Below, in pieces: positions 10,585 through 26,892 of a stretch of DNA of 64,000 bases. Each line of letters begins with the position of its first letter. Position 1 is the first letter of the stretch. Both the position numbers and the translations under genes were made by a program. A model generated the notes under the pieces. The model saw only the letters and a program-made list of their open reading frames with translations. It ran no database searches and had not been told where the DNA came from. The stretch lies in assembly GCA_964641965.1 (NCBI GenBank), contig CAZXLD010000015.1, positions 17,516 to 81,515 on the forward strand. The letters are read 5' to 3'. The stretch is from an uncultured Saprospiraceae bacterium. Lineage in GTDB: Bacteria > Bacteroidota > Bacteroidia > Chitinophagales > Saprospiraceae.

Positions 10585-10622
10585 TGATCTTTCTTTAGTT
10601 AAACACGAAACGAACTTTGTTA

Positions 10623-10958
10623 ATGGGCAAACAGAAAAAGATCTCCGTCCCCTTAAAAGAAGACGGCATCCAATTAAACTACGATGAACTCCGGAGAGCA
10701 GTTTTGGTGCTAAGAGCCATTAATCACAAACTCCGCCAACGTATCATTGATCTGTTAGAAGAGTCCGATAGCCTCACAGTCACTGATATTTACATTAAGC
10801 TCCGCCTTGAACAGTCTGTTGCCTCTCAACACTTGGCTATCTTACGCAGAGCCGGTGTGGTCCAGACTCGTCGTGACGGTAAATTTATCCATTATTCCTT
10901 AGATCGCGACCGCCTTCAACTCATCTCGGAATTGGTTGAACAATTAAACCTTTCCTAG
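10623..10958 (+). CDS. ArsR/SmtB-family winged-helix transcriptional regulator (copy 1)
   Basis: LRAINHKLRQRIIDLL...LEQSVASQHLAILRRAGVVQTRRDGKFIHYSL is the canonical ArsR HTH-plus-wing pattern. The start was moved to the first ATG; the track ORF begins at a TTG at 10617. Confidence 0.8.
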   Translation: MGKQKKISVPLKEDGIQLNYDELRRAVLVLRAINHKLRQRIIDLLEESDSLTVTDIYIKLRLEQSVASQHLAILRRAGVVQTRRDGKFIHYSLDRDRLQLISELVEQLNLS

Positions 10959-11100: not shown

Positions 11101-11421
11101 ATGCAGAAAACAGAAATTCGTATCAGCGTGAATCAGGAGCAGCTTTCATCTGCTGCAGAACTCCTTCGAGCACTAGCTCATCCTCTGCGGCTCAAAATTA
11201 TTGGTTTCATCGATAAAAATGATTCCATACACGTAAATAAGATTTACAATTCATTGAAATTGGAACAATCGATCACTTCCCAACACCTTCGTATACTCCG
11301 AATAGCGGATGTTGTACGTACTCAGCGGGAAGGAAAATTTATCTTTTACAGCTTGAATTATGACCGCCTCGGAAATACGATTAAAGCTATCCGGTCATAC
11401 TTGAAGAAAATCGAAGATTGA
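11101..11421 (+). CDS. ArsR/SmtB-family winged-helix transcriptional regulator (copy 2, paralogue of copy 1)
   Basis: LRALAHPLRLKIIGFI...LEQSITSQHLRILRIADVVRTQREGKFIFYSL aligns residue for residue with the upstream copy. Confidence 0.8.
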   Translation: MQKTEIRISVNQEQLSSAAELLRALAHPLRLKIIGFIDKNDSIHVNKIYNSLKLEQSITSQHLRILRIADVVRTQREGKFIFYSLNYDRLGNTIKAIRSYLKKIED

Positions 11422-13023: not shown

Positions 13024-15330
13024 TTAATCATCCACCTTTGCCAGTTCCTTGTCAATATTTTTTTTCCGATCGTAAAAAAGAAACAATAGAACAGGCAAAA
13101 GTGTCAGATCGAAAAAGGCCGCCAAGAAGAGGGTAACAGCCACTAAACCACCTAGATAAAAGGTCCCCAAAAAGTTTGAAAAGGTGAGCGTTAGAAAGCC
13201 ACATAACAGGATAATGGTAGTCAAGGCGATCGCCTTTCCAGTAGATACGATCGTGTGTCTCAGGGCTAAAGTCACAGATGATCTTGCTTGCATTTCTCTT
13301 TGAAACCGGGAAAGGAAGTGAATGGAATCATCTACCGCAATTCCGAAGGAAAGAATGAAGATAATTGAAGTAGAAATTTTAAGATCGATGCCGTAAAAAC
13401 CCATAACTCCTGCTATCACGATCAATGGGAGCAAGTTTGGAATCAGCGATAACAAACCCAACCGGACAGATCCCAAAACAATTGCAAAAAGAATTCCGAC
13501 CAAAGCAATAGCGACCGATAATCCCCACAGGACATTCTTTGCCAGGTAACTATTATTTAGATCAAGTAAATGAGGGGTACCAGTAACGTGGACTTGGAAA
13601 GGAGTATTTGTCAATTCCTTTTTGACCCACTCCATCAATGCCTGGTTGCGCATGGAAAAAACTGCGCTGCCTTCATCTTTAGTTAGTCCACTGATTCGCA
13701 TCCATGGCTTCTTTTCCGAGGATACATATTTACCCCAAATATCCTGGCCCGTTTCCTGTTTAAACCTATCGATCAAGTTCGTGACATCTTCCTGCGAACT
13801 TGGTAAGCTATAAAAATCAGGATCTCCTCCCTTGGAGACTTGATTGGCCTGTTTCAAGATTTCTACTGGGGAAATCAGACTCCCAACCCCATAGGTAGCT
13901 AATAGAAAGCTATCCAATCGTTCAATCTGCCGCAATACTTTTAATTGTAACAGGTCGGCATTCTCTTGTTTGGCTACCAAGGCAATTTCCATACCTCTTG
14001 CGCCGGAAAAATGACTTTCGAAAAAATGGAATGCCTGCCTTCTGGGATGATCTGGCTTTAAGTCTTCCAGTAAATAATTGTTCACCTTCAATTGGGTGAT
14101 CCCGATTGGACTAACCAATAGTACCAAGACCGATATCACAATAACCAATTGCCTATTATTCATGACCCAGGAAAGCCATTGCAACAGCAGTCGGTTCCAC
14201 CAGGCCGAACGATCGGAAAAACCCTTAAACACCTCACCATATAATACAAGAATTGCCGGTATTAAAGTGTAGGTAAGTAAAAGGGCAAAAAACAAACCAA
14301 CGGTTGTCACCCATCCCACTTCGATCAAGGGTATAAAAGTGGAAGTAGTCAAAGTAAGAAACCCGACGGCAGTAGTCATCGTAGTCAGCAAAGTAGCTGT
14401 ACCCACTTCCTTTACTGCCTTTTTGAGTGCCTGGCTCAGCCCCAGGCCTGCTTTGCGATAAAGCTGAAAATGGGTAACTAAGTGGATGGCATCTGCAACA
14501 CCAATGACCAGGAGCACTGTAGGTATAATATTGGAGATCAGATCAAATGGCTTTCCGGACACCGCCATCAAGCCAATCGTCCATAAAACGGATAATCCGA
14601 CCACAATAAGGGGAAGAGCTACGCCCAGCAAAGTTCGATAAGCCCAAAAAAGCAGAATAAATACAGCTAGTATAGAAGTTCCGGTGAATAGGACCGTTTC
14701 GAATTGCAGCGTCCGAATGAATGTAGTTTGCCCAAAGCATTTGCCAGCTATTTCAGCATGATCCACCTCCATTTCGTCAACCAATTGCTGAACTTCCGTA
14801 GAAAGGTCAGCGCAAAATTCATCCGAATCAGCAGCTTTGTGCCACAATTGAAGGAGAACCGCCTTGCGATCCTCACTGAAAAAGGATTTAATCCACCCTT
14901 TTTGCTGGAAGAAAAACAAGCTGTCGGAACGATACCGCTCTGGGTTATTTAGATGAAAAAATGGCGTGGATAGCACCCGTGGACCAAAGGGATTCGGATT
15001 GCGCCTTTGAAATCGGAATTGGGTAGGATTAATGACGCGTTCTGTCTGAGGAAGCTTCTCCAGCCTAGTTGTTAACTGGTTAAGTTGATGAAGGAAACTG
15101 GAGTCAAATACACCTTGCGCTGGTCGAAAACCGATCAGGATGTAATCATTGTCAACGCCAAACCGATCCTGAAATTGATAGAAAAACTCAGTATCTGGAT
15201 CACCAATTGGAAGGAACCGTTCCAGGTCATAGTCGAAGTACAGTGCCCGGGTTTGCCAAAGCCAAAAAACGCTGATTAGAATGGTAAAGAAAATTCCCCA
15301 ACGACTAAATCGTTTAAATCGATCCATCAT
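13024..15330 (-). CDS. MMPL/COG1033-type RND-superfamily exporter, last gene of the type III PKS operon
   Basis: Two 6-TM bundles, the GIAVDDSIHFLSRF motif, and an N-terminal LERFLPIGDPDTEFF...DNDYILI paralogous to 1049..3394. The start is set at the ATGATG at 15330/15327 (MMDRFKRFSRWGIFF), which overlaps the PPTase stop by 14-17 nt. The track ORF extends to 15435. Confidence 0.8.
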   Translation of the reverse strand: MMDRFKRFSRWGIFFTILISVFWLWQTRALYFDYDLERFLPIGDPDTEFFYQFQDRFGVDNDYILIGFRPAQGVFDSSFLHQLNQLTTRLEKLPQTERVINPTQFRFQRRNPNPFGPRVLSTPFFHLNNPERYRSDSLFFFQQKGWIKSFFSEDRKAVLLQLWHKAADSDEFCADLSTEVQQLVDEMEVDHAEIAGKCFGQTTFIRTLQFETVLFTGTSILAVFILLFWAYRTLLGVALPLIVVGLSVLWTIGLMAVSGKPFDLISNIIPTVLLVIGVADAIHLVTHFQLYRKAGLGLSQALKKAVKEVGTATLLTTMTTAVGFLTLTTSTFIPLIEVGWVTTVGLFFALLLTYTLIPAILVLYGEVFKGFSDRSAWWNRLLLQWLSWVMNNRQLVIVISVLVLLVSPIGITQLKVNNYLLEDLKPDHPRRQAFHFFESHFSGARGMEIALVAKQENADLLQLKVLRQIERLDSFLLATYGVGSLISPVEILKQANQVSKGGDPDFYSLPSSQEDVTNLIDRFKQETGQDIWGKYVSSEKKPWMRISGLTKDEGSAVFSMRNQALMEWVKKELTNTPFQVHVTGTPHLLDLNNSYLAKNVLWGLSVAIALVGILFAIVLGSVRLGLLSLIPNLLPLIVIAGVMGFYGIDLKISTSIIFILSFGIAVDDSIHFLSRFQREMQARSSVTLALRHTIVSTGKAIALTTIILLCGFLTLTFSNFLGTFYLGGLVAVTLFLAAFFDLTLLPVLLFLFYDRKKNIDKELAKVDD

Positions 15331-15847
15331 ATTGATCAACAGCCGGCCAAACAAATGCCTGAAAACGACCATGGTGACTCTTGGAAACAGGTAGGGTTCG
15401 ATGAGTGTTTCGAAACCTTGCGGACAAAGCTCCACTTTGTAGTTTTTCCAAAATGTATTCCCCGCTTGAGATCACAACCTTAGCATCCCAAAAATCAATT
15501 AGACTTACCGTATCCTGTACCCCTTTCTCACAACAGTATACGTGTATAAACTCAGGAGTCTGAAGCATTCGAAAAGCATAGGTACCTCGCGTGCCTATAA
15601 CATACATGGAGTCCATGTAAACCTGATAGGCTTTAGGCCGATGCAGACGTTGGCAGCCTGCCCGACGCTCTAGCTTGTAGGCACTTTCTTTAGCTGCCCA
15701 TAGCACCCATTTATTCACCATCTGCCCCTTGATACTCTGAAATTGCTCCCATTCCAATGGATGTAAAACCTTCTCCCAAAACCGCGTTTCACTAGCTCGG
15801 GAATTCGATTCCGCCAATCGGAGATCAACAATATCATTGCCGATCAA
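15314..15847 (-). CDS. 4'-phosphopantetheinyl transferase
   Basis: MIGNDIVDL opening and WAAKESAYKL motif of the AcpS/Sfp superfamily. 177 aa. Shares a 4-nt overlap with the upstream ACP gene. Confidence 0.75.
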   Translation of the reverse strand: MIGNDIVDLRLAESNSRASETRFWEKVLHPLEWEQFQSIKGQMVNKWVLWAAKESAYKLERRAGCQRLHRPKAYQVYMDSMYVIGTRGTYAFRMLQTPEFIHVYCCEKGVQDTVSLIDFWDAKVVISSGEYILEKLQSGALSARFRNTHRTLPVSKSHHGRFQAFVWPAVDQYDGSI

Positions 15848-16098
15848 TTGGAGCTGATTTTACCTTCGATGATATCCAAGGCTGCCCCAACAGTCAACAT
15901 TTTCTCAGCAGACTTGTCATCGATTTCGATGTTAAAGGCATCTTCGACATCTAATATGATATCTACCAGGTTGGCAGAGTTGATGCCGAGATCATCCAAC
16001 AAATCGGTTTCCTCTGTTAGGCTTTTGAAAGCAACCTGATTCTGAACGTAGGGTTGGATAATCTGTTGGAGGGTAGTTGTTAATTCTTTCCGTTCCAT
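15844..16098 (-). CDS. Acyl carrier protein (cluster-dedicated)
   Basis: The DDLGINSANLVDIILDVEDAF helix-II region contains the phosphopantetheine-attachment Ser. The start is set at the internal ATG at 16098 (MERKELTTTLQQ), 1 nt after the KS stop. Confidence 0.8.
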   Translation of the reverse strand: MERKELTTTLQQIIQPYVQNQVAFKSLTEETDLLDDLGINSANLVDIILDVEDAFNIEIDDKSAEKMLTVGAALDIIEGKISSN

Positions 16099-16099
16099 C

Positions 16100-17377
16100 C
16101 TAAGTCTGAAAATTTTTAAAAATGAGCACACTATTTACATCTCCAAAACCAAAGCTAGCTTTCGCAAGGTACTCTATATCAGGCACTGAAAGGCTTTGCC
16201 GAGGTATCCGGTCCGGATGCACGAGGGATTCAATTTGAGGATGGAGGTCTTCACAATTGAGCGAAGGATGCACAAAACGATGCATTAACTGAAGTACTGC
16301 AGCGACAGATTCTATGGCCCCAGCGCCGCTAAGGCAATGGCCCACCATAGATTTCAGCGAGTTAATTAATGGAAAATCTTGCCCACATCTGTTTAGGGCA
16401 CTGACCCAGGAATCTATTTCAATGACATCTCCTCTAGTGGCAGTGAGGTGCCCGGAAATCACACCGATCTGATCAACTTCGATTTTGGATTCGTTTAGCG
16501 CTCCCCGAATACACCGCTCTATTCCATCTGGGTTTGGGGCAGTCATACTCCCTCCATTTCTTTGACCTCCAGAATTTGTGTACCCGCCAACTAATTCTGC
16601 ATAGATGACAGCCCCTCGTTTTTGAGCTGCCTCCAGTGATTCCAGTATAAATGCCCCGGCACCGCTGCCCGGTACAAAGCCTGAAGCTGTAGCGCTCATA
16701 GGCCTTGAACCCTGCTCAGGATGATCATTGAATCTTCGGGTAAGAACCCGCATAGCGTCAAAGCCCCCCCAAATGTAGGGTCCATCTGTATCGCAAGACC
16801 CGCAAAGCATCCGTTCAGCTTTACCCGTTCTTATATGCTCGCTGGCCAGACGCAATGCTTCAGTACCTGTGCTGCATGCGGATGCATTGGCGACAACCCA
16901 ATTTCCCAATCCGAAGCGTCCACCTAGGTAAGCACTTGGACCACTAGCCATGGTTTGAGTGACCGTATGGCTACCCATGCGCTTTACCTTGTTACTGTCA
17001 ATCAAATAAACGCCATCCCGGATAGGCCGTACGCCGGATAATCCAACTCCAAAAATGCAACCTGTATCCCAATCAGGGGTGTTGTCTTTCTGCTTTTCCA
17101 GACCGGCATCAGCCCAAGCTTCCTCCGCAGCTATTATCCCATAAAGCAGGTTGTGTGCTGTCAATTGGCGAAGCTCAAGCTCAGAAAAATAACGGGCTTT
17201 CAACTCATCCGTTAACATCGGCGCCCCACCAATGCAACATCCGAAATGCTTTTCTTCCAACTCCGGAAAATACCGAATACCGGATTTCCCAGATTGAATG
17301 GCTTCCAAAAAAGCCGGAATCCCAATGGCATTCGGAGCAACAACCCCCATTCCTGTCACCACCACTCTTCTGGTCAT
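16100..17377 (-). CDS. Beta-ketoacyl-ACP synthase, KAS I/II (FabF/FabB-like, Cys-His-His)
   Basis: RRVVVTGMGVVAPNA opening, the active-site Cys in NASACSTGTEAL, and the two His residues in SGHLTATRGD and MVGHCLSGAGA. Confidence 0.9.
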   Translation of the reverse strand: MTRRVVVTGMGVVAPNAIGIPAFLEAIQSGKSGIRYFPELEEKHFGCCIGGAPMLTDELKARYFSELELRQLTAHNLLYGIIAAEEAWADAGLEKQKDNTPDWDTGCIFGVGLSGVRPIRDGVYLIDSNKVKRMGSHTVTQTMASGPSAYLGGRFGLGNWVVANASACSTGTEALRLASEHIRTGKAERMLCGSCDTDGPYIWGGFDAMRVLTRRFNDHPEQGSRPMSATASGFVPGSGAGAFILESLEAAQKRGAVIYAELVGGYTNSGGQRNGGSMTAPNPDGIERCIRGALNESKIEVDQIGVISGHLTATRGDVIEIDSWVSALNRCGQDFPLINSLKSMVGHCLSGAGAIESVAAVLQLMHRFVHPSLNCEDLHPQIESLVHPDRIPRQSLSVPDIEYLAKASFGFGDVNSVLIFKNFQT

Positions 17378-17844
17378 ACGTGATGGTTACTGTCACGCAA
17401 AATCATTCCTGCCAAGGTTCCCCGGCACGCGATTTCACCCAAGGTGTTTGTCATTTCTGCGCTCACTTTAAGCTTACCTAATCTCAGGTAATGCTTTTTT
17501 GCCAGAACCTCCACCCGTTCACCAGGTAGGACAGGCTGCAGGAACTCTACCTGAGAATGCGTAAAGGCAAATCTTCGCACATTTCTGGTCTTGTGGGTTC
17601 CGGTGAGAAAGATTCCCCAGGCAGCCAATCCGATCTGGGCCATACATTCAGTGAGGATTACCCCCGGAGTAACTGGAATACCTGGAAAATGGCCCTTGTA
17701 AAAGAACTCGTCCTCCCGAAAAGTGTAAGTTCCCAGGATATGGTCAGGAGTCATTTCCAAGATCTTGTCTACAAATCGAAAGGGCGCTGCATATGGAAGT
17801 AGATCCACACACAGCTGCAAATCGGCTGTTGATGTTTGGTCCAT
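17374..17844 (-). CDS. FabZ/FabA-like hotdog 3-hydroxyacyl-ACP dehydratase
   Basis: The YKGHFPGIPVTPGVILTECMAQ catalytic His/Glu motif. 156 aa. Confidence 0.85.
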   Translation of the reverse strand: MDQTSTADLQLCVDLLPYAAPFRFVDKILEMTPDHILGTYTFREDEFFYKGHFPGIPVTPGVILTECMAQIGLAAWGIFLTGTHKTRNVRRFAFTHSQVEFLQPVLPGERVEVLAKKHYLRLGKLKVSAEMTNTLGEIACRGTLAGMILRDSNHHV

Positions 17845-17847
17845 GAA

Positions 17848-18654
17848 CTAAACATTTTTTTCTCCGCCATCCACCGGCAAAATAGCACCGTTTACCCAGG
17901 CGGCTTCATCCCTGCAAAGTAAGTAGATAAAATCAGCAACATCTTCCGGGCGAGTCAGCCGACCCAGCGGATTTCGTTCCTGAGATTGCTTTTTTAGTAG
18001 TTCCTGATCGGGTATCATAGCCAACGAAGGGGTAGGGGTCACTCCAGCCTGTATCAAGTTGCTTCGAATGCCATAATAACCAAATTCAGCCGCAATGGAG
18101 CGAGACATGGATTCCAAGGCTGCCTTCGCTGCCCCCACTTGGGCATAATGAGGCCAAGTCCTGTAGCTACCTTCGCTGGTAAGACCAAGACATCGACTAT
18201 CCGCTGCGAAAAATCCTCGACTGAAAAGCGCTTTTATCCAGTGATAGTAACTTAGGGCCATAGCTTCAAAAGTAAGCGCAAAATCGTCAGGCCGAGCCAG
18301 AGTTTGGTCTTTTTGGAGAGAAGCAGGAGAGAGTCGTTTCAGGTTTCCTCTAGAAATACTATGGAGAAATAAGCGCACTTTGCCATTTTGGCCTAAAGCA
18401 GGCATCAATTCATCCAGGATTTCAACCTGCCGCTCCTGGCGAAGTGCATCCCGGTTAAAAGTGATCAGTTGGACTCCAGTGGACTTTAAGCAATCCCATT
18501 CTTTTTCCAACTCTGGTAACCGCTGCCTTCGGTCCCGATGCACAATGCACAAATGCATCCCTTCACTTGCCAATTTATGGGCTGTTGCTAAGCCAATACC
18601 GCTGGAGCCACCCAAAATAACTGCCCAGTAATTTTTTTCTTGGAAGGTACCCAT
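17848..18654 (-). CDS. SDR-family reductase with an enoyl-ACP reductase (FabI/FabL-like) Y-x6-K signature
   Basis: Nucleotide-binding ILGGSSGIGLATA. YAQVGAAKAALES aligns with E. coli FabI YNVMGLAKASLEA (Tyr-x6-Lys) rather than the Y-x3-K of FabG-type ketoreductases. Confidence 0.7.
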   Translation of the reverse strand: MGTFQEKNYWAVILGGSSGIGLATAHKLASEGMHLCIVHRDRRQRLPELEKEWDCLKSTGVQLITFNRDALRQERQVEILDELMPALGQNGKVRLFLHSISRGNLKRLSPASLQKDQTLARPDDFALTFEAMALSYYHWIKALFSRGFFAADSRCLGLTSEGSYRTWPHYAQVGAAKAALESMSRSIAAEFGYYGIRSNLIQAGVTPTPSLAMIPDQELLKKQSQERNPLGRLTRPEDVADFIYLLCRDEAAWVNGAILPVDGGEKNV

Positions 18655-18655
18655 A

Positions 18656-19720
18656 TCAAGACCAATTTAGGAGGATACGCTGTGCCGAAAAACCGGGGCC
18701 AAAACTCAACATCATACCCTTATCGCCACGGTTTACTTTTCCGTTATTCATCAAAAAGTCCAGCACATACAGTACGGTCGCACTGGACATATTACCATAG
18801 CGTCGAAATATTTCCTTGGTCCCGTCAATATTTTTCCCACGTGGGGCCAACATCTCCTCTACCAAACGCATAATCTTTTTACCACCAGGATGAAATACAA
18901 AATGGTCAATTTGGTCCAGATCGGTTCCGTGACCCTCCAGAAATTCATCCAGCACTTCCGGCATGTGGGCTGCAATTGTTTCTGGAACTTGTGGATCCAG
19001 CACCATTCTGAAGCCCGAATCAACTACTTTATACCCCATCATATGGATAGCATCGTAAAAATGATACATTCCTGATGGCCCAAGTGCTGGTCCTAGATTT
19101 TCTGAGTCAGGCCCTATGATTGCACAAGCGACACCATCTCCAAACAGGGCTGTGCTCACGATGTTGGCCATGCTATAATCATTCGCCTGAAAAGTGCAAG
19201 AAGGGAACTCGGCGGCAATAACCGCTGCTGTTTTGCCAGGCTGGGCCTCCAAAAGCTGTTTGGCATAGATCAACGCTGATACTCCTGCCGCACAACCCAT
19301 CTCTGTGACTGGAAGACGGACCACATCCTGTCGCATCCGAAACTTATTAATCAAATAGGCATCAACGGAAGGGATCATGAAACCGGTACAACTTACCGTA
19401 ATCAGGTAGTCTAGTTCAGACGGATCCAGCCCACTCTTGGCCAAGGCACCGCCCAAGGCCTCTTCCGACAAGGCAATAGCATGCTCAATATAGTGGTCGT
19501 TTCGAGCTTCAAAGCTATCGAATCGAATCATATCTTCCGGTGCTGTAACCGTGTAGCGTTGATCGACTTCAGCGTATTGAAAAATACGAAGCGCCTTTCG
19601 CCTCAGCCGGTCCGGCTGGTCCGACAACCATTGCTCTGCGTGCATGCAGGATTCAGCATTGGTTTTACGAAGCTCAGGCACTGCGATTGCCGTTGCAAGT
19701 ATTTTATTGAGTGCACTCAT
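18656..19720 (-). CDS. Type III polyketide synthase (chalcone/stilbene synthase superfamily)
   Basis: The Cys-His-Asn triad contexts are VSCTGFMIPS, FVFHPGGKKI and YGNMSSATVLYVL. 354 aa. Confidence 0.9.
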   Translation of the reverse strand: MSALNKILATAIAVPELRKTNAESCMHAEQWLSDQPDRLRRKALRIFQYAEVDQRYTVTAPEDMIRFDSFEARNDHYIEHAIALSEEALGGALAKSGLDPSELDYLITVSCTGFMIPSVDAYLINKFRMRQDVVRLPVTEMGCAAGVSALIYAKQLLEAQPGKTAAVIAAEFPSCTFQANDYSMANIVSTALFGDGVACAIIGPDSENLGPALGPSGMYHFYDAIHMMGYKVVDSGFRMVLDPQVPETIAAHMPEVLDEFLEGHGTDLDQIDHFVFHPGGKKIMRLVEEMLAPRGKNIDGTKEIFRRYGNMSSATVLYVLDFLMNNGKVNRGDKGMMLSFGPGFSAQRILLNWS

Positions 19721-20474
19721 GGTTTGAATTGAATAATAGCATTTGCCATCGAAAGGCCCATCGCCATTTCAGGTGATAATCCTTGCAATTGCAGGCTCGA
19801 AGATAGGATTCAAGATCACTCCTGCGAAAAGCTTTTCGAATGGAAAGCAAACCGTCGTGTCGTGCCATACCGGAAATCCTGAACAACCTGCTCCAAATCT
19901 GAAATAAAACAAATGCCATACGGTTGCGATGGAGGTCATTGATCAAGATACATTGTGTACTAGGCAACGAGAGTAGCTGCTGCAGTAAAGATATGATCTC
20001 CTCATCTGTAAAGTGATGCAGAAAAAGAGAACACAGGTAAATGTCTCCTTCGGGCAAATCCGGCACGTGTAAGGCCTCCGCTTTCTTGTAAGTGATTTCA
20101 GAGAAATTCTCGCTTTCCCTACAGGCATAGGTTAGCACATGCTCGTTTGCATCCACCCCAATCAACTCCACTTTCGAATCAAATTTGCGAAAATAGCGTG
20201 CCAGATATCGCAGAGTATCCCCGCCTCCACATCCCAGGTCCACGATTCGAAGAGGTCTATCCAGTTGATGTGGTGTTTGTTTTAGGTAGATTTTTAGTGC
20301 TTTCAGCACAATGAGATATCCTCCGAGCCACCGGTTGACCTTCTCTATCCCGTTTAGAGCTCCTTCAATCTCTACCCCTCCAAGATCCAGATCATCCATC
20401 AGCTCGGGGCGAGTATCTCTAGTTGGCAACCACTCACGCATATTCAGGTACGATTGGTTGAACGGGTTTACCAT
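19704..20474 (-). CDS. Class I SAM-dependent methyltransferase (SrsB-like position)
   Basis: Motif I is IVDLGCGGGD. An alternative ATG at 20441 would reduce the overlap with the upstream gene to 8 nt. Confidence 0.8.
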   Translation of the reverse strand: MVNPFNQSYLNMREWLPTRDTRPELMDDLDLGGVEIEGALNGIEKVNRWLGGYLIVLKALKIYLKQTPHQLDRPLRIVDLGCGGGDTLRYLARYFRKFDSKVELIGVDANEHVLTYACRESENFSEITYKKAEALHVPDLPEGDIYLCSLFLHHFTDEEIISLLQQLLSLPSTQCILINDLHRNRMAFVLFQIWSRLFRISGMARHDGLLSIRKAFRRSDLESYLRACNCKDYHLKWRWAFRWQMLLFNSNHECTQ

Positions 20475-21570
20475 GCGTCAAGGTGATCAACTTCTGCGTA
20501 AGCCCCGGAAAATATGCCCCAAATCCAACGAGCTTATCCATGAGGAAGGGAATCCAGCACATTTGCTGTAACTGCCTGCCTACCCATAGCCGATTCGCAA
20601 AGGTGTTGCGCCAGTACCTTTGGTAAGCCTGGTGCAATTCTGTTTCTGAAATAGACCCGTTGAGGTAGGAAGCACCTAGGATAGCTGCCTGATAGCCGCC
20701 CTGAATCGCCATCGCCATACCGTTTCCGCAAAGCGGACTGATTAACCCTGCAGAATCCCCTGCATAGAGTACCCCGGATTCAACAGCAGGCCTGGGCGAG
20801 AAGGAAATATTTGAAATGGTAAGGGGCTTTGCCCATAATCTTTCTCCTCTGGTAAATAGGTCGGAAAGGGCTTGATTCCTGGATAAAACCTGTTTTTCCA
20901 ATTGCTCTATAGAACCTGCTTTCCGCAACTGATCAGCATGAACCAAATAACAGACGTTCACCTTCCCATCCTCCACCTGGGATACCCCACAATACCCCTT
21001 AGGAAAATGGTGCAATTGGACCTCATTCGATGGCATTGCCCAATGCATATGGTACTTAACGCCCATCCAGGGACTCCTTCCCGGCATTTGCGGACGCATC
21101 TGCTTATCTAATACAGATCGTTTACCCTGGCAACCGATGACTAGCTTTGCAACTATGGAATCTCCTTTCTTGGTTTGCAATCTATACCCACCCGCCTCCG
21201 GCTGGATAGCCATTACCGACTCCTGGGTGCGAATAGCCACACCGAGTGCTTTGGCCTGAACAGCAAGAAAATGATCTAATGCATATCGACTTATGCTGAA
21301 TGCCCCCAATGGGAGTGAAACTTGCAGTGCAACTCCAGAACAGGTCGTTACACTCAGCCGGTCGATGTAGACTGGATTTAAACGATGCGGAAAGAGACCT
21401 AAATGCTCAAGCAATGGCTTTACTTCTAAAGAAATATACTCGCCACATACTTTATGTCTGGGGTAATTTGACTGCTCTACCAGAATTACCCGAAACCCTT
21501 TTTTTGCTAACGTGATCGCGCAGGTCAGCCCCGCCAACCCTCCGCCAATAACGGCAACCTCGTTGTTCAT
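20434..21570 (-). CDS. FAD-dependent oxidoreductase/monooxygenase (geranylgeranyl-reductase-like fold, SrsC-like position)
   Basis: Dinucleotide fold VAVIGGGLAGLTCAITLAKKG...VEQ, and the GD motif YAGDSAGLISPLCGNGMAMA. Confidence 0.8.
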   Translation of the reverse strand: MNNEVAVIGGGLAGLTCAITLAKKGFRVILVEQSNYPRHKVCGEYISLEVKPLLEHLGLFPHRLNPVYIDRLSVTTCSGVALQVSLPLGAFSISRYALDHFLAVQAKALGVAIRTQESVMAIQPEAGGYRLQTKKGDSIVAKLVIGCQGKRSVLDKQMRPQMPGRSPWMGVKYHMHWAMPSNEVQLHHFPKGYCGVSQVEDGKVNVCYLVHADQLRKAGSIEQLEKQVLSRNQALSDLFTRGERLWAKPLTISNISFSPRPAVESGVLYAGDSAGLISPLCGNGMAMAIQGGYQAAILGASYLNGSISETELHQAYQRYWRNTFANRLWVGRQLQQMCWIPFLMDKLVGFGAYFPGLTQKLITLTHGKPVQPIVPEYA

Positions 21571-22139
21571 GGAAGCAAGTTACAAGAAAGCTTTACTTCG
21601 ACCGTATTTCCCAAGATGAAGCTTTTGGAGCCTACATTGAATTCGAGTCGGTTTAAAGAGAAACTTCCTTCGAGGTGAATTCCATTGCCTTGTGGTGTGA
21701 CCGTGAAAGGAAATTCGATGTTTTTGGTTACCCCTTTGATCGTAAGCCTACCTGAAAAGAGATAGCCATTAGCATCTTGGCGAATGGACTCAGATCGGAT
21801 TCGGATCACGGGAAAATGCTCCTGGTCAAAGTATTTTTCCTGCATTAGATGTTCATCCCGCTTGTTGATGCCTGTTTTCATGGAAGCCACAGCAACAGTC
21901 GCATCCAATTTAGATTGGCTGGGTTGCTCGGGATCAAAGGATCCCTTAACAGAAAGGTCTCCCAAATCGCCATCCACCCAAAATCCGGCATTCTTAATCC
22001 TGAATTCAACTTTCTCACTACCCGCCTCCAAAGTGGAGTAGACAGTAGACAATCCCGGGTAGCCCGGACCACTTGCTAACAGCATAAAAACAGTACTTAG
22101 TATCATATTCATATTCCAGGAACATCCATGAATAGACAT
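21567..22139 (-). CDS. YceI-like lipid/polyisoprenoid-binding protein, secreted; first gene of the PKS operon
   Basis: Signal-like MNMILSTVFMLLASG, then the YceI pattern (EFRIKNAGFWVDGDLG..., SMKTGINKRDEHLMQEKYFDQEHFPVIRIRS, GRLTIKGVTKNIEFPF). The true start may be the ATG at 22112. Confidence 0.75.
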   Translation of the reverse strand: MSIHGCSWNMNMILSTVFMLLASGPGYPGLSTVYSTLEAGSEKVEFRIKNAGFWVDGDLGDLSVKGSFDPEQPSQSKLDATVAVASMKTGINKRDEHLMQEKYFDQEHFPVIRIRSESIRQDANGYLFSGRLTIKGVTKNIEFPFTVTPQGNGIHLEGSFSLNRLEFNVGSKSFILGNTVEVKLSCNLLP

Positions 22140-22173: not shown

Positions 22174-22818
22174 TTAACCTTTTTGAATAGCAGATTTATA
22201 CACTGCCAATAGTTCGCTAAGCATCATAGCTGTAGCGCCCCACAACACTTTCCCTTGCAAATCAAAATAGGGTACGTTATTAAGGGCAATACCTTCACCT
22301 ACCGTCATTTGAGTAATCTGGACTGCTCTGGGCTCCACGAATTTTAAAAAGGGAAATTCGAGGACCGATTTAACCTCTGATACTTGGGGTGTAAAAGCAG
22401 GAGCATAATCCAGCACACCCACAAATGGGTGAACCAAGAAATTGCTGACCGGAATATACAGCTCCGTCAAGCTCCCTAAAACCTGAATATCACCCTGGCG
22501 TACACCAATTTCTTCTTCTGTTTCCCTAAGCGCCGTATTCTCCATCTGACCATCTTCTTCTTCGAACCGACCTCCTGGAAATCCGATCTGACCTCTATGG
22601 CGATCCTTCGGATTATTGGAAACACGTTCGATAAATACTAAATGCCATTCCCGCTTTTTGGGATAGAGCAGGGCCATAACACCTGCCCGATTCACTCTTT
22701 TTGGAGGGTGCACTGCATGTTTACGGCTAACATGCGCCATTTGGAATTGGGCTTCTTCTCCCGGAAGGGGTAACTCTAGCTGACTTTGAATGATATGTGG
22801 AAGGTCTGTAGTTTTCAT
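22174..22818 (-). CDS. NUDIX hydrolase, CoA pyrophosphatase subfamily
   Basis: Nudix box GGRFEEEDGQMENTALRETEEEIGV, preceded by the CoA-pyrophosphatase signature ..ERVSNNPKDRHRGQIGFPGG. Confidence 0.8.
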   Translation of the reverse strand: MKTTDLPHIIQSQLELPLPGEEAQFQMAHVSRKHAVHPPKRVNRAGVMALLYPKKREWHLVFIERVSNNPKDRHRGQIGFPGGRFEEEDGQMENTALRETEEEIGVRQGDIQVLGSLTELYIPVSNFLVHPFVGVLDYAPAFTPQVSEVKSVLEFPFLKFVEPRAVQITQMTVGEGIALNNVPYFDLQGKVLWGATAMMLSELLAVYKSAIQKG

Positions 22819-22905: not shown

Positions 22906-22950
22906 ACAAAAAATAAATGGGCCTTACCGGAATCCCGCAAAGCCCATTCA
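22906..22950 (-). terminator. Intrinsic terminator after the hemD-like gene
   Basis: On the minus strand the stem is AATGGGC (22948..22942) pairing with GCCCATT (22922..22916), with a 19-nt loop, followed by TATTTTTT. It separates the hemD-like gene from the NUDIX/PKS genes downstream. Confidence 0.5.
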
Positions 22951-22971
22951 CGATTCAAAAACAAGAAAATT

Positions 22972-24769: not shown

Positions 24770-24910
24770 AGCATGTGCAATATAATAGATGCTCCCAGCA
24801 TTATTTCTTCCCCTTCTGCCTCCAATTATTCTACCCTACAATTTCTTTATTTTGTTAATAAGCCGTTAACCGGTTTTCAGCCTATCTGGCCAGCCATTAT
24901 ATTGATCCCT

Positions 24911-26191
24911 ATGAGCAATCGCCGCATTCAGCAATTGGTAGTATTGGGAGCTATTGTCATTGCCACCACGGTTATTTTACAGACATTTTGGGTCTTTAAT
25001 ACCTGGCAGTTTAATGCATCTCAATTGGACAGACAGGTTACTTTAGCACTGAGGCGCGTGGCACAAGACCTTGCCGATGTAAATGGGAGTCAGCTATCAA
25101 ATCAAGGATTGATCCTAAAAAAAACCAGCAACTATTATGTAGTAAATACCAGGGACATCATTGAACCAAGTGTACTGGAATTTTTCCTTCGAAAACACAT
25201 GGACTCGGTAGCCCTTCGATTAGATTATGAGTATGCTATTTTTGATTGCGCATCAGACGAAATGACATTCGGAAAATATGTCCGCTATAACCAACTCGAA
25301 CCTTCACCCCTGCTGGAAACCCTACCAAAGGAACAAGGACTGAACTATTATTTTGGCATTCAATTCCCTACCATGGGCCAGCACTTAGTCCACCGTATGG
25401 GCTTCTCCCTTGGCTTGTCTGCTGTCTCTTTACTCTCCCTGTTCTTCTTTGCCTTTTCTCTGTATATCATCTTGAAACAAAAGCGATTATCAGAGTTGCA
25501 GAAGGATTTTATCAATAACATGACCCATGAGTTTAAGACTCCAATCTCTACCATTCGAATTGCCTCAGAGGTATTGGCTCGATCTCCTATAGTAGGTCAA
25601 GATAACCGGCTGAAAACCTATGCTCAAATCATTCAAGAGCAGAATCAACGTTTAAATAATCAGGTAGGTCGTGTCCTACAATTGGCCCAACTTGAGCGCA
25701 GTTCATTTATTCTGAACGGTAAACCGATAGACCTCAACCAATTGGTTACACAAGTCGCTGAAAGTATGGAGATCAGAACCAGGGAAAATGGGGGTTTGCT
25801 CTCGTTAGATTGTCCGAAGGAGGAGGTTTGGATTCAGGCAGACCCTTTTCATACCCGCAATGTGATCCACAACCTGTTGGATAATGCTTTTAAATATGCC
25901 CAGCCCCATCCAAAGGTCCGCTTGGAACTCACACCCCACTCTGAAGCAATCCAATTGATTATCTCTGATAATGGGCCAGGCATTCCTTCGGAATTTAAAG
26001 ACAAGGTCTGGGAGAAGTTCTTTCGGGTTCCATCCGGTAACCTTCACAATGTGAAAGGATTTGGACTGGGACTGTATTATGTGAATATGATTTGCCAAAA
26101 GCAACGTTGGTCCCTTGCGTTGGAATGTCCGGTCGATGGTGGGACTACTGTTCGAATTGGTATCCCCAGAACTAAAAAGGAAATTCAATGA
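24911..26191 (+). CDS. Sensor histidine kinase (HisKA + HATPase_c)
   Basis: H-box FINNMTHEFKTPISTI, N-box HNLLDNAFKY, and G-boxes DNGPGIP and GFGLGLYYV. The start is set at the ATG at 24911 (MSNRRIQQLVVLGAIV); the track ORF starts at 24773. Confidence 0.85.
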   Translation: MSNRRIQQLVVLGAIVIATTVILQTFWVFNTWQFNASQLDRQVTLALRRVAQDLADVNGSQLSNQGLILKKTSNYYVVNTRDIIEPSVLEFFLRKHMDSVALRLDYEYAIFDCASDEMTFGKYVRYNQLEPSPLLETLPKEQGLNYYFGIQFPTMGQHLVHRMGFSLGLSAVSLLSLFFFAFSLYIILKQKRLSELQKDFINNMTHEFKTPISTIRIASEVLARSPIVGQDNRLKTYAQIIQEQNQRLNNQVGRVLQLAQLERSSFILNGKPIDLNQLVTQVAESMEIRTRENGGLLSLDCPKEEVWIQADPFHTRNVIHNLLDNAFKYAQPHPKVRLELTPHSEAIQLIISDNGPGIPSEFKDKVWEKFFRVPSGNLHNVKGFGLGLYYVNMICQKQRWSLALECPVDGGTTVRIGIPRTKKEIQ

Positions 26192-26892
26192 TTCGAGGAA
26201 AACTGATGTATGTGGAAGACGATGAAAGTCTGAGCTTTGTTACGCAGGATAATCTGGAGCTGGAAGGATACCGCTTAAGCTGCTATTCGGATGGTAAAAG
26301 TGCGCTGGAGGCCTTTCGCAAGGAACCTTTTGACCTTTGCATTCTGGATGTCATGCTACCGGAAATGGATGGTTTTACCCTAGCTGAACATATTCGAGAA
26401 TGGAATCCGGAGGTCCCCATCCTTTTTTTAACGGCTAAAAGCTTGCCCGAAGATCGGCTCCATGGCTTGCGGCTAGGAGCGGACGACTACCTGACGAAGC
26501 CTTTTAACATAGAGGAATTGATCTTAAAGATTGAAATATTTCTAAAGCGAAGAAAGGTCATTCCCCTAGTAGATCAGGAAAAGCCCTTCTCACTCGGTGG
26601 AGCTACATTTGATTATCCCAACCTAAATCTAAAGGTGAATGGTACAGCTCGAAAGCTCACCCAAAAGGAAGCAGACTTATTGTTGTTACTGGTCCAAAAC
26701 CCCAATCAAGTACTCAAGCGGTCCGAAATTTTGATCCAGGTATGGGGTTCCGATGATTATTTTCTGGGCAGGAGCCTGGATGTATTCATTTCGCGCCTCC
26801 GAAAATATCTCAAGGAAGAACCTTTATTACAGATCGAAACCCTCCACGGAGTTGGGTTCAGGCTGCTGACAGAAAGCTCCTTAATTCCTTGA
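26188..26892 (+). CDS. OmpR/PhoB-type response regulator
   Basis: Receiver domain (VEDDESL, DLCILDVMLPEMDG, LTAK) plus a winged-helix output (LTQKEADLLLLL..., GVGFRL). Shares an ATGA overlap with the kinase gene. Confidence 0.9.
   Translation: MIRGKLMYVEDDESLSFVTQDNLELEGYRLSCYSDGKSALEAFRKEPFDLCILDVMLPEMDGFTLAEHIREWNPEVPILFLTAKSLPEDRLHGLRLGADDYLTKPFNIEELILKIEIFLKRRKVIPLVDQEKPFSLGGATFDYPNLNLKVNGTARKLTQKEADLLLLLVQNPNQVLKRSEILIQVWGSDDYFLGRSLDVFISRLRKYLKEEPLLQIETLHGVGFRLLTESSLIP

Follow-up and report, generated by a model that had tools for sequence, protein, structure and literature searches.

A type III polyketide synthase gene cluster with discrete fatty acid synthase-like genes in an uncultured Saprospiraceae bacterium, a variant of a cluster family widespread in Bacteroidota

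The alkylresorcinols of the SrsABC system in Streptomyces griseus are methylated and hydroxylated to alkylquinones. In the Ftp system of Myxococcus xanthus a stand-alone acyl carrier protein (ACP) and a fatty acyl-AMP ligase feed the type III polyketide synthase (T3PKS) FtpA, and in ArsABCD of Azotobacter vinelandii and Steely of Dictyostelium a machine of the fatty acid synthase (FAS) type passes a long acyl chain straight to the T3PKS. Hierridin biosynthesis involves HidA, which methylates pentadecylresorcinol in vitro, and HidB, proposed to hydroxylate the ring (PMC6836626). Related to the cyanobacterial hidABC genes are 58 planctomycete operons encoding a methyltransferase (MT), a flavin adenine dinucleotide (FAD)-dependent oxidoreductase and a T3PKS; T3PKSs of planctomycete operons made pentadecyl- and heptadecylresorcinols (C15/C17) in C. 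glutamicum, and the product gained one methyl group when the MT and FAD genes were expressed alongside (PMC10896814). Here we report on a ten-gene cluster at positions 13024-22139 of a 64,000-nucleotide stretch (the window) of contig CAZXLD010000015.1 from an uncultured Saprospiraceae bacterium (assembly GCA_964641965.1). Among phenolic-lipid T3PKS systems the cluster appears to form a variant of its own, with an incomplete type II FAS-like starter module, a private 4'-phosphopantetheinyl transferase (PPTase) and, in some lineages, an MMPL transporter and a YceI-like lipid binder.

The initial annotation of the window, made from the sequence, had described ten co-directional genes. Recomputation of the open reading frames (ORFs) gave the same ten minus-strand ORFs with the same coordinates at 13024-22139, and searches with Pfam and NCBIfam agreed with the family that had been assigned to each of the ten. 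In the order of transcription the features are as follows.

21567 to 22139, minus strand: YceI-like lipid/polyisoprenoid-binding protein with a hydrophobic N-terminal segment (Pfam YceI 104.7 bits, threshold 23.7)
20434 to 21570, minus strand: FAD-dependent oxidoreductase with a geranylgeranyl reductase (GGR)/group-A monooxygenase/halogenase fold (Pfam FAD_binding_3)
19704 to 20474 (alternative start 20441), minus strand: class I S-adenosylmethionine (SAM)-dependent MT (Pfam Methyltransf_25/11/12; NCBIfam PRK06202 134 bits)
18656 to 19720, minus strand: T3PKS of 354 aa (Pfam Chal_sti_synt_N/C)
19292 to 19294, 18890 to 18892 and 18791 to 18793, minus strand: codons of the T3PKS residues C143, H277 and N310, respectively
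17848 to 18654, minus strand: FabL/FabI-type short-chain dehydrogenase/reductase (SDR), probable enoyl-ACP reductase (ER; Pfam adh_short_C2 137 bits)
17374 to 17844, minus strand: FabZ-like 3-hydroxyacyl-ACP dehydratase (DH) with H52 and E66 (Pfam FabA; NCBIfam FabZ 67-69 bits, cutoff 155)
16100 to 17377, minus strand: FabF-like beta-ketoacyl-ACP synthase (KS) with C168, H310 and H347 (Pfam ketoacyl-synt N and C)
15844 to 16098, minus strand: dedicated ACP with the phosphopantetheine Ser41 in LGINS (Pfam PP-binding; NCBIfam ACP 46-51 bits, cutoff 70)
15314 to 15847, minus strand: AcpS-like PPTase of unusual length (177 aa) with a TTG start (Pfam ACPS 37 bits, residues 2-63)
13024 to 15330, minus strand: MMPL/HAE3-type resistance-nodulation-division (RND) transporter, putative lipid exporter (Pfam MMPL 165.5 bits in two stretches)

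Among species-level genomes the closest T3PKS is that of an uncultured Saprospiraceae metagenome-assembled genome (81% identity; the flanking HemD there is 92% identical), and thousands of homologues at approximately 55-58% identity occur across Bacteroidota, including Chitinophaga, Flavobacterium, Muricauda, Owenweeksia and Halocola. The ten window proteins were mapped by tblastn onto 32 Bacteroidota loci (one genome per species, some of the contigs being short; loci are numbered with the prefix L) and all ORFs of these loci were clustered. The core-bearing loci span Flavobacteriia, Cytophagia and Saprospiria. All 32 carry the T3PKS gene, while the MT gene is present in 31, DH in 29, FAD and KS in 28 each, PPTase in 27, ACP in 24 and SDR in 15. 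The order FAD-MT-T3PKS-(SDR)-DH-KS-ACP-PPTase recurs in Flavobacterium, Polaribacter, Aquimarina, Spirosoma, Saprospiraceae and unclassified Flavobacteriales; the SDR gene is absent from the Flavobacterium-type loci, in which the gap between the T3PKS and DH genes is about 100 nt or less. The ORF clustering of the 32 loci gave no other gene family common to them across genera, so that the conserved functional unit comprises seven or eight core genes. That these genes work as one unit is argued by the retention of the core genes in 24 to 32 of the 32 loci with no other conserved neighbour. As judged from these alignments the gene cluster is not due to chance, each gene having conserved homologues in the same order in approximately 30 other species.

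The complete arrangement of the window, i.e. with NUDIX, YceI and MMPL genes and the same flanks, is kept in L048-L050 and L055, whose T3PKSs are 68-69% identical to that of the window. What the initial annotation had described as one coupled system of a phenolic-lipid module, an ACP line and an exporter stands for the eight biosynthetic genes, which stay together across classes of Bacteroidota, and the exporter belongs to it in some lineages only. The merger of three biosynthetic logics that it had suggested is not unique to this locus: the window carries a Saprospiraceae-type variant of a widespread Bacteroidota cluster family.

Two further differences in gene content were seen. L012, L016 and L022 (approximately 14387-15535; Saprospiraceae/Flavobacteriales) have a second methyltransferase gene after the PPTase gene, together with a gene for a 144-aa multi-pass membrane protein without any Pfam match, and in the Aquimarina loci L031 and L014 a gene for an Abhydrolase_3 esterase (alpha/beta hydrolase) is located between DH and KS.

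In Pfam the T3PKS exceeded the cutoffs of PF00195 (73.8 bits) and PF02797 (68.8 bits). Its best matches in the PDB were the tetrahydroxynaphthalene synthase THNS (1u0m), PKS11 (1.2e-47) and CylI, and Steely1 was also matched; the scores were 171 bits against the DpgA model, approximately 166 against THNS and PKS11, 119 against CylI and 101 against PKS18, which would place the enzyme at roughly equal distance from the characterised bacterial ones. In the alignment the GC(A/V)AG Cys of THNS, PKS11 and CylI falls on C143 within TEMGCAAGV, the catalytic Cys of the window enzyme, and C143, H277 and N310 are kept across 32 homologues. Of the catalytic contexts named previously, the His in FHPGG and the Asn in GNMSS are thus the right ones, and the Cys in SCTGFMIPS is C111, at another conserved position. 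Five residues past H277, K282 occupies the ACP-docking position (equivalent to A308 of chalcone synthase), where THNS has Arg and PKS11 and CylI have Lys. This position is Arg or Lys in bacterial T3PKSs that use ACP or CoA and Ala in the plant enzymes (PMC7064976). Calling resorcinol versus pyrone formation from the position of ArsB W281, ArsC G284 and PKS18 L266 was also considered and was dropped, as this position was not predictive in the alignments.

The FAD, MT and T3PKS genes are adjacent and co-directional (18656-21570). In NCBIfam the FAD enzyme was about as close to the GG-reductase superfamily (108 bits) as to the QhpG-type monooxygenase (105 bits), neither match reaching its cutoff. 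An AlphaFold (AF2) model of the enzyme (m3254a147eed1, with a mean pLDDT confidence score of 91.5) had 3oz2, FasV, Bmp2, PltA, 3nix and PqsL as top matches in Foldseek, and it is about equally like a GGR-like protein, phenol/pyrrole flavin halogenases, a Cytophaga flavoprotein, PqsL and 3-hydroxybenzoate 6-hydroxylase. Invariant in the family are GGGLAG, H-x-V-C42-G-E-Y, G-Y-C-G and G-D272-x-A-G...P-L-x-G-N-G-M, motifs that we take to be closer to those of GGRs than to the GDAAH of classical aromatic hydroxylases. This HidB-like enzyme, a homologue of the 'fdo'/HidB-type proteins encoded in MT-FADox-T3PKS operons, is the least certain part of the cluster, and the motifs and the model make it a predicted hydroxylase or reductase. 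A canonical halogenase was rejected, since the family has G-Y-C-G instead of WxWxIP in spite of the fold matches to halogenases. The chlorination of hierridin C has no assigned enzyme (PMC6836626), for which the halogenase-like fold of a family without WxWxIP is a lead only.

Conservation of the catalytic residues of the cluster enzymes was followed in 16 to 32 homologues per protein. In the KS (NCBIfam fabF 270 bits, cutoff 494; best PDB match FabF 1j3n, 2.5e-56) the Cys-His-His triad is kept in 29 homologues, Ser41 of the ACP is kept in 25, and the PPTase motifs GNDIVD, WxxKE(S/A)xxK and SHHG are kept in 28, with a score for the NCBIfam PPTase domain of 25 bits (cutoff 45). The DH motif HFPxxPxxPG...E is kept among homologues, and orthologues match the ApeI-like/ApeP-like Pfam families. 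For the SDR, FabL was the best NCBIfam match (120 bits, cutoff 328) and the PDB search gave the Bacillus subtilis FabL structure 3oic over the full length as well as 2,4-dienoyl-CoA reductase (DECR); Y170-x6-K177 (HYAQVGAAK) is invariant in 16 homologues. The invariant Y-x6-K, a FabI/FabL-type signature of enoyl reductases, in place of YxxxK, together with the FabL/DECR matches, led us to reject a ketoreductase (KR), and these features mark the SDR as of the enoyl-reductase type. Because all five FAS-like proteins fall below the NCBI cutoffs for their housekeeping equivalogs, they are best seen as specialised paralogues.

KS, DH, ER and ACP are thus all present in the cluster. The sole SDR being of the Y170-x6-K177 kind, there is no FabG-type (YxxxK) KR in the cluster, and no acyltransferase (AT) or malonyl-CoA:ACP transacylase domain was found in the cluster or its flanks. 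Both activities would therefore have to come from the primary FAS. The "private ACP/KS/DH/reductase line" proposed before is accordingly represented by its parts and does not amount to a full FAS, given the enoyl-reductase type of the SDR and the lack of KR and AT.

We consider it fairly probable, from the predicted enzymes, that the operon makes a tailored membrane phenolic lipid of the alkylresorcinol, methoxy-alkylphenol or alkylquinone class, from a starter built on its own carrier; the individual steps are held with less confidence than the overall picture. In such a pathway the PPTase would activate the dedicated ACP at Ser41, and the FabF-like KS would condense a fatty acyl group from primary metabolism with malonyl-ACP and so move the chain onto this private carrier. 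Housekeeping FabG, the FabZ-like DH and, where present, the FabL-type ER would finish one or more cycles. The T3PKS would take the chain from the private ACP, add approximately three malonyl-CoA and cyclise the product, most likely to a 5-alkylresorcinol. The HidA-like MT would then methylate the ring, and the HidB-like flavoenzyme would probably hydroxylate it to give a hydroquinone or quinone, similar to hierridin or an alkylquinone. In the Saprospiraceae-like lineage the MMPL/HAE3 RND pump would extract the lipid from the inner membrane, and onward transport in the direction of the outer membrane may fall to the probably periplasmic YceI-like binder.

Several points weigh against this reading. 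Product, transcript and enzyme activities are all predicted from sequence. Approximately half of the related loci have no ER, and the private elongation chemistry is thus not uniform. The ten genes and their flanks encode no AMP-binding domain (acyl-AMP ligase, FAAL), and with neither an AT nor a loading enzyme one can only guess at the way in which the private ACP receives its chain. The FAD enzyme could reduce a C=C bond and not hydroxylate, because a resemblance to GGRs is seen in its invariant motifs K-V-C-G-E and G-D-x-A-G and in its best fold match, and experiments left open the role of the planctomycete FAD homologue (PMC10896814). Gene order differs as well, being FAD-MT-T3PKS in the window and the other Bacteroidota loci and MT-FAD-T3PKS in the hid-type operons, and the variant hidC>hidA>hidB also occurs in cyanobacteria. 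Finally, resorcinol versus pyrone cyclisation is not readable from the T3PKS sequence: at the ArsB W281/ArsC G284 position, in our reading of the alignments, CylI, a resorcinol former, has Leu, and the window T3PKS has Tyr.

This last point bears on an unlikely alternative, in which the same operon is used and the T3PKS lactonises its intermediate to an alkylpyrone, in the manner of PKS11, PKS18, BpsA or ArsC, which is then methylated and reduced or oxidised. The alpha-pyrone synthase PKS11 is, alongside THNS, among the best matches of solved structure, and no sequence determinant fixes the mode of cyclisation; against a pyrone speaks that the MT and FAD proteins have their homologues in hid-type operons, in which the T3PKS forms alkylresorcinols, and that BpsB, the pyrone methyltransferase of Bacillus, is of a different, membrane-bound type (ICMT).

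It seems quite improbable that the FAS-like genes belong to one pathway and the T3PKS trio to another, the two only lying side by side, with the former making e.g. an aryl-polyene-like lipid or some specialised fatty acid for export by the MMPL protein. Hid-type operons do work without an ACP or KS, aryl-polyene loci carry MMPL-type exporters, and the matches of the orthologous DHs to ApeI/ApeP-like families would fit such a division. However, adjacency and gene order are kept across Bacteroidota classes while other neighbours vary, and a second phylum independently joins ACP and KS to T3PKS and FAD. There is a single KS and no chain length factor (CLF) partner, aryl-starter ligase or DarA/DarB; DarB models scored 28-32 bits on the T3PKS (cutoffs 450-550), and neither a ligase nor an ammonia-lyase was found in the ten genes and flanks. 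Moreover, the FAS-like set has no chain-release enzyme, a role that the T3PKS would fill. That the T3PKS-like protein is a FabH-like ketosynthase priming the private ACP line, with a modified acyl chain and no ring as product, is very hard to credit: it also matches FabH C-terminal Pfam domains and Cys-His-Asn is common to the KAS III enzymes, but it scores 171 bits with DpgA and 166 with THNS against 79 with FabH, both Chal_sti_synt domains are present, and the homologous Planctomycetota trio makes resorcinols.

With respect to export of the predicted phenolic lipid, the MMPL protein has hydrophobic bundles at approximately residues 212-416 and 604-752 and scored below the curated cutoff of every named subfamily tested (HAE3, HpnN, MmpL3 and BstA), e.g. 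213.6 bits for HAE3 TIGR00921 (cutoff 351.9) and 133 for HpnN (cutoff 752); weak PDB matches were to MmpL4/5, HpnN and MmpL3. The gene directly follows the PPTase gene in L048-L050, L055 and L056. In L056 the T3PKS is 58% identical, the cluster follows a trp operon and YceI and NUDIX genes are absent, so that the recurrence of MMPL in this different genomic context suggests that its linkage is more than inherited context. L054 carries the core genes and no MMPL gene. The YceI-like protein is probably periplasmic; PDB matches include Escherichia coli YceI and polyisoprenoid-binding proteins, the solved homologues being polyisoprenoid/lipid binders. A YceI gene adjoins the cluster in L006, L048-L050, L055, L031 and L014, and in Aquimarina it lies beside the PPTase gene on the opposite strand. 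A T3PKS operon of 'Saltatorellus ferox' has a gene for a 'lipid/isoprenoid-binding protein' (PMC10896814), which, by analogy, echoes the YceI association of the window cluster. MMPL and YceI, and perhaps NUDIX too, are accessories, i.e. lineage-level additions in the Saprospiraceae-like lineage.

The tight junctions that had been noted before were recovered on recomputation. They are -4 nt (21567-21570) between YceI and FAD, -41 between FAD and MT for the longest MT ORF or -8 with the MT start at Met12 (20441, the choice of the gene callers in two of three identical contigs), -17 between MT and T3PKS, +1 between T3PKS and SDR, +3 between SDR and DH, -4 between DH and KS, +1 between KS and ACP with the ACP start at ATG 16098, -4 between ACP and PPTase, and -17 between PPTase and MMPL with the MMPL start at ATG 15330. 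The longest ACP ORF begins at GTG 16131 and the longest MMPL ORF at GTG 15435; both GTG starts are unlikely because homologues align only from the later Met, those of MMPL from approximately residue 10 of the 768-aa form. A mild step in composition was seen within the cluster: the GC content of the KS, DH, SDR, T3PKS and FAD genes is 0.48-0.49 and that of the MMPL, ACP and YceI genes 0.42-0.44, while the window outside the cluster has 0.446.

The predicted transcription unit would extend beyond the ten genes, with two further features upstream.

22174 to 22818, minus strand: NUDIX hydrolase, CoA-pyrophosphatase-like (Pfam NUDIX; NCBIfam NF007980 72 bits, cutoff 134)
22908 to 22951, minus strand: intrinsic terminator hairpin and U-run between HemD and NUDIX (RNA fold)

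The hairpin at 22908-22951 (-24.3 kcal/mol, z -5.85, none of 200 shuffles as stable), which is followed by UUUAUUUUUU, was missed by the consensus terminator scan and is the probable 5' boundary of the unit. The NUDIX gene has the same orientation as YceI and precedes it by 34 nt, and no terminator was found between the two. Since there is a strong terminator upstream of NUDIX and none between NUDIX and YceI, the unit probably starts at NUDIX, comprising eleven genes, and is not bounded at 22139. NUDIX precedes YceI by 4-6 nt in L048 and L055 and is absent from L056. A CoA- or acyl-CoA-cleaving NUDIX hydrolase beside an ACP/PPTase cluster could reflect a functional link or mere context. RNA folding gave no terminator-like structure 3' of MMPL; DksA-like and LspA genes come 113 nt past MMPL, and the flanks, DUF4271-HemD and DksA-LspA, are typical Bacteroidota housekeeping genes.

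Consensus scans for sigma-70 promoters and terminators gave counts no higher than in shuffled sequence, and the Bacteroidota -7 motif TAnnTTTG occurs four times within the coding sequence of the operon and not at all in the intergenic stretches that precede YceI and NUDIX. The statement in the initial annotation that there is no room for internal promoters is an argument from spacing only. Two tandem genes for ArsR-family helix-turn-helix regulators (10617-10958 and 11101-11421, plus strand) adjoin LspA, and are found at the same place in L048. A histidine kinase gene and the next gene, encoding a presumed response regulator of 234 aa (24773-26892, plus strand), are divergent from DUF4271-HemD; L048 and L049 each have a histidine kinase/response regulator pair in the corresponding position, and it is possibly a local regulator. 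The 64-kb window has no tRNA genes and no Rfam families at the gathering threshold.

T3PKS clusters made up 9% of the Flavobacteriaceae biosynthetic gene clusters (BGCs) in a study of 66 genomes from several phyla and 10.7% of the BGCs across 2,680 Flavobacteriaceae genomes, and in genome-mining papers such clusters either lack a counterpart in MIBiG or are called 'likely novel type III polyketides'. No paper characterising a Bacteroidota T3PKS cluster or its KS/DH/ACP/PPTase content was found in the full-text literature, a search with most subscription journals outside its reach. The cluster family, which antiSMASH already flags as 'T3PKS' in Bacteroidota, is thus an orphan and not a one-off. 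We put forward tentatively, as a doubtful but specific proposal, that KS-DH(-ER)-ACP-PPTase is a previously undescribed route by which a T3PKS is primed, i.e. by condensation and not by an acyl-AMP ligase or a type I FAS, and that it serves a conserved phenolic or quinone lipid of the Bacteroidota envelope, which in some lineages is moved to the outer membrane by MMPL and YceI. If true, this would be a new starter-delivery logic for type III PKSs, and if most of the T3PKS clusters counted in Flavobacteriaceae have the eight-gene core, one product assignment would cover a very large orphan family. In other phyla phenolic lipids of this class are known to function in beta-lactam tolerance, cyst envelopes and alternative respiration, and a conserved one in Bacteroidota could bear on envelope biology in bacteria that abound in the sea and in soil. 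How it leaves the inner membrane is the subject of a concrete hypothesis offered by the MMPL and YceI additions.

Compared with the described systems, SrsABC has the same three enzyme classes as the window, the comparison being one of enzyme classes, and, unlike the window, no carrier-protein line or exporter. The hid-type and planctomycete operons share with it the co-directional T3PKS, SAM MT and FAD oxidoreductase genes. They lack ACP, KS, DH, ER and PPTase genes, and an exporter or lipid binder is missing from most of them; the starter proposed for HidC is the thioester-activated fatty acid pool of the cell (acyl-ACP; activated palmitate), unlike the private ACP of the window. When the FAD enzyme was searched by tblastn against plasmids, two loci were informative, L051 of Paludisphaera borealis (Planctomycetota) and L052 of Novosphingobium pentaromativorans (plasmid pLA3). 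L051 is a plasmid-borne operon of MT, FAD oxidoreductase and T3PKS genes, known by annotation only although its class is the one studied in PMC10896814, and was used as the sequence stand-in for SrsA/B/C, ArsB/C, FtpA-E and HidA-C; by tblastn the window proteins are 32% (MT, 2e-24), 27% (FAD, 2e-21, 97% of the length) and 30% (T3PKS, 6e-42) identical to it.

In the Ftp system FtpA is fed by a stand-alone ACP, and methylation and oxidation lead to an alkylquinone, as would be the case here. The stand-alone ACP and the basic docking residue of the Ftp/Cyl type are both present in the window; in contrast to Ftp, it has no acyl-AMP ligase, a FabF-like KS and a DH (sometimes with an ER) take the place of the loader, and the PPTase is private. 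ArsABCD and Steely have a complete type I FAS, whereas the parts in the window are discrete, of type II, and without KR and AT. Aryl-polyene and flexirubin clusters have, as the window, discrete ACP, KS and DH and an MMPL-type exporter; the window differs in having no KS/CLF pair, aryl-starter activation, KR or DarA/DarB, and in having a T3PKS as the core enzyme. HpnN, MmpL and BstA are RND/MMPL pumps for hydrophobic envelope lipids, to which the window MMPL shows weak matches below the curated cutoffs, and we infer its pairing with a YceI-type binder.

The second plasmid locus, L052 (363766-367840 of the megaplasmid pLA3), an apparently uncharacterised parallel, has genes for DUF2147, ACP, KS, T3PKS and an FAD monooxygenase and a divergent methyltransferase gene. 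Matches to the FAD enzyme on plasmids numbered 40, and 17 of them belong to Sphingobium or Novosphingobium, the locus content being taken from pLA3 alone. As in the window, discrete KS and ACP are paired with a T3PKS; unlike the window, L052 has no DH, ER, PPTase, MMPL or YceI. The window proteins are 28% (FAD), 30% (MT) and 30% (KS) identical to their L052 counterparts, and the window KS scores lower against the L052 KS than against FabF. Since the two KSs are only 30% identical, the pairing of KS and ACP with a T3PKS probably arose more than once.

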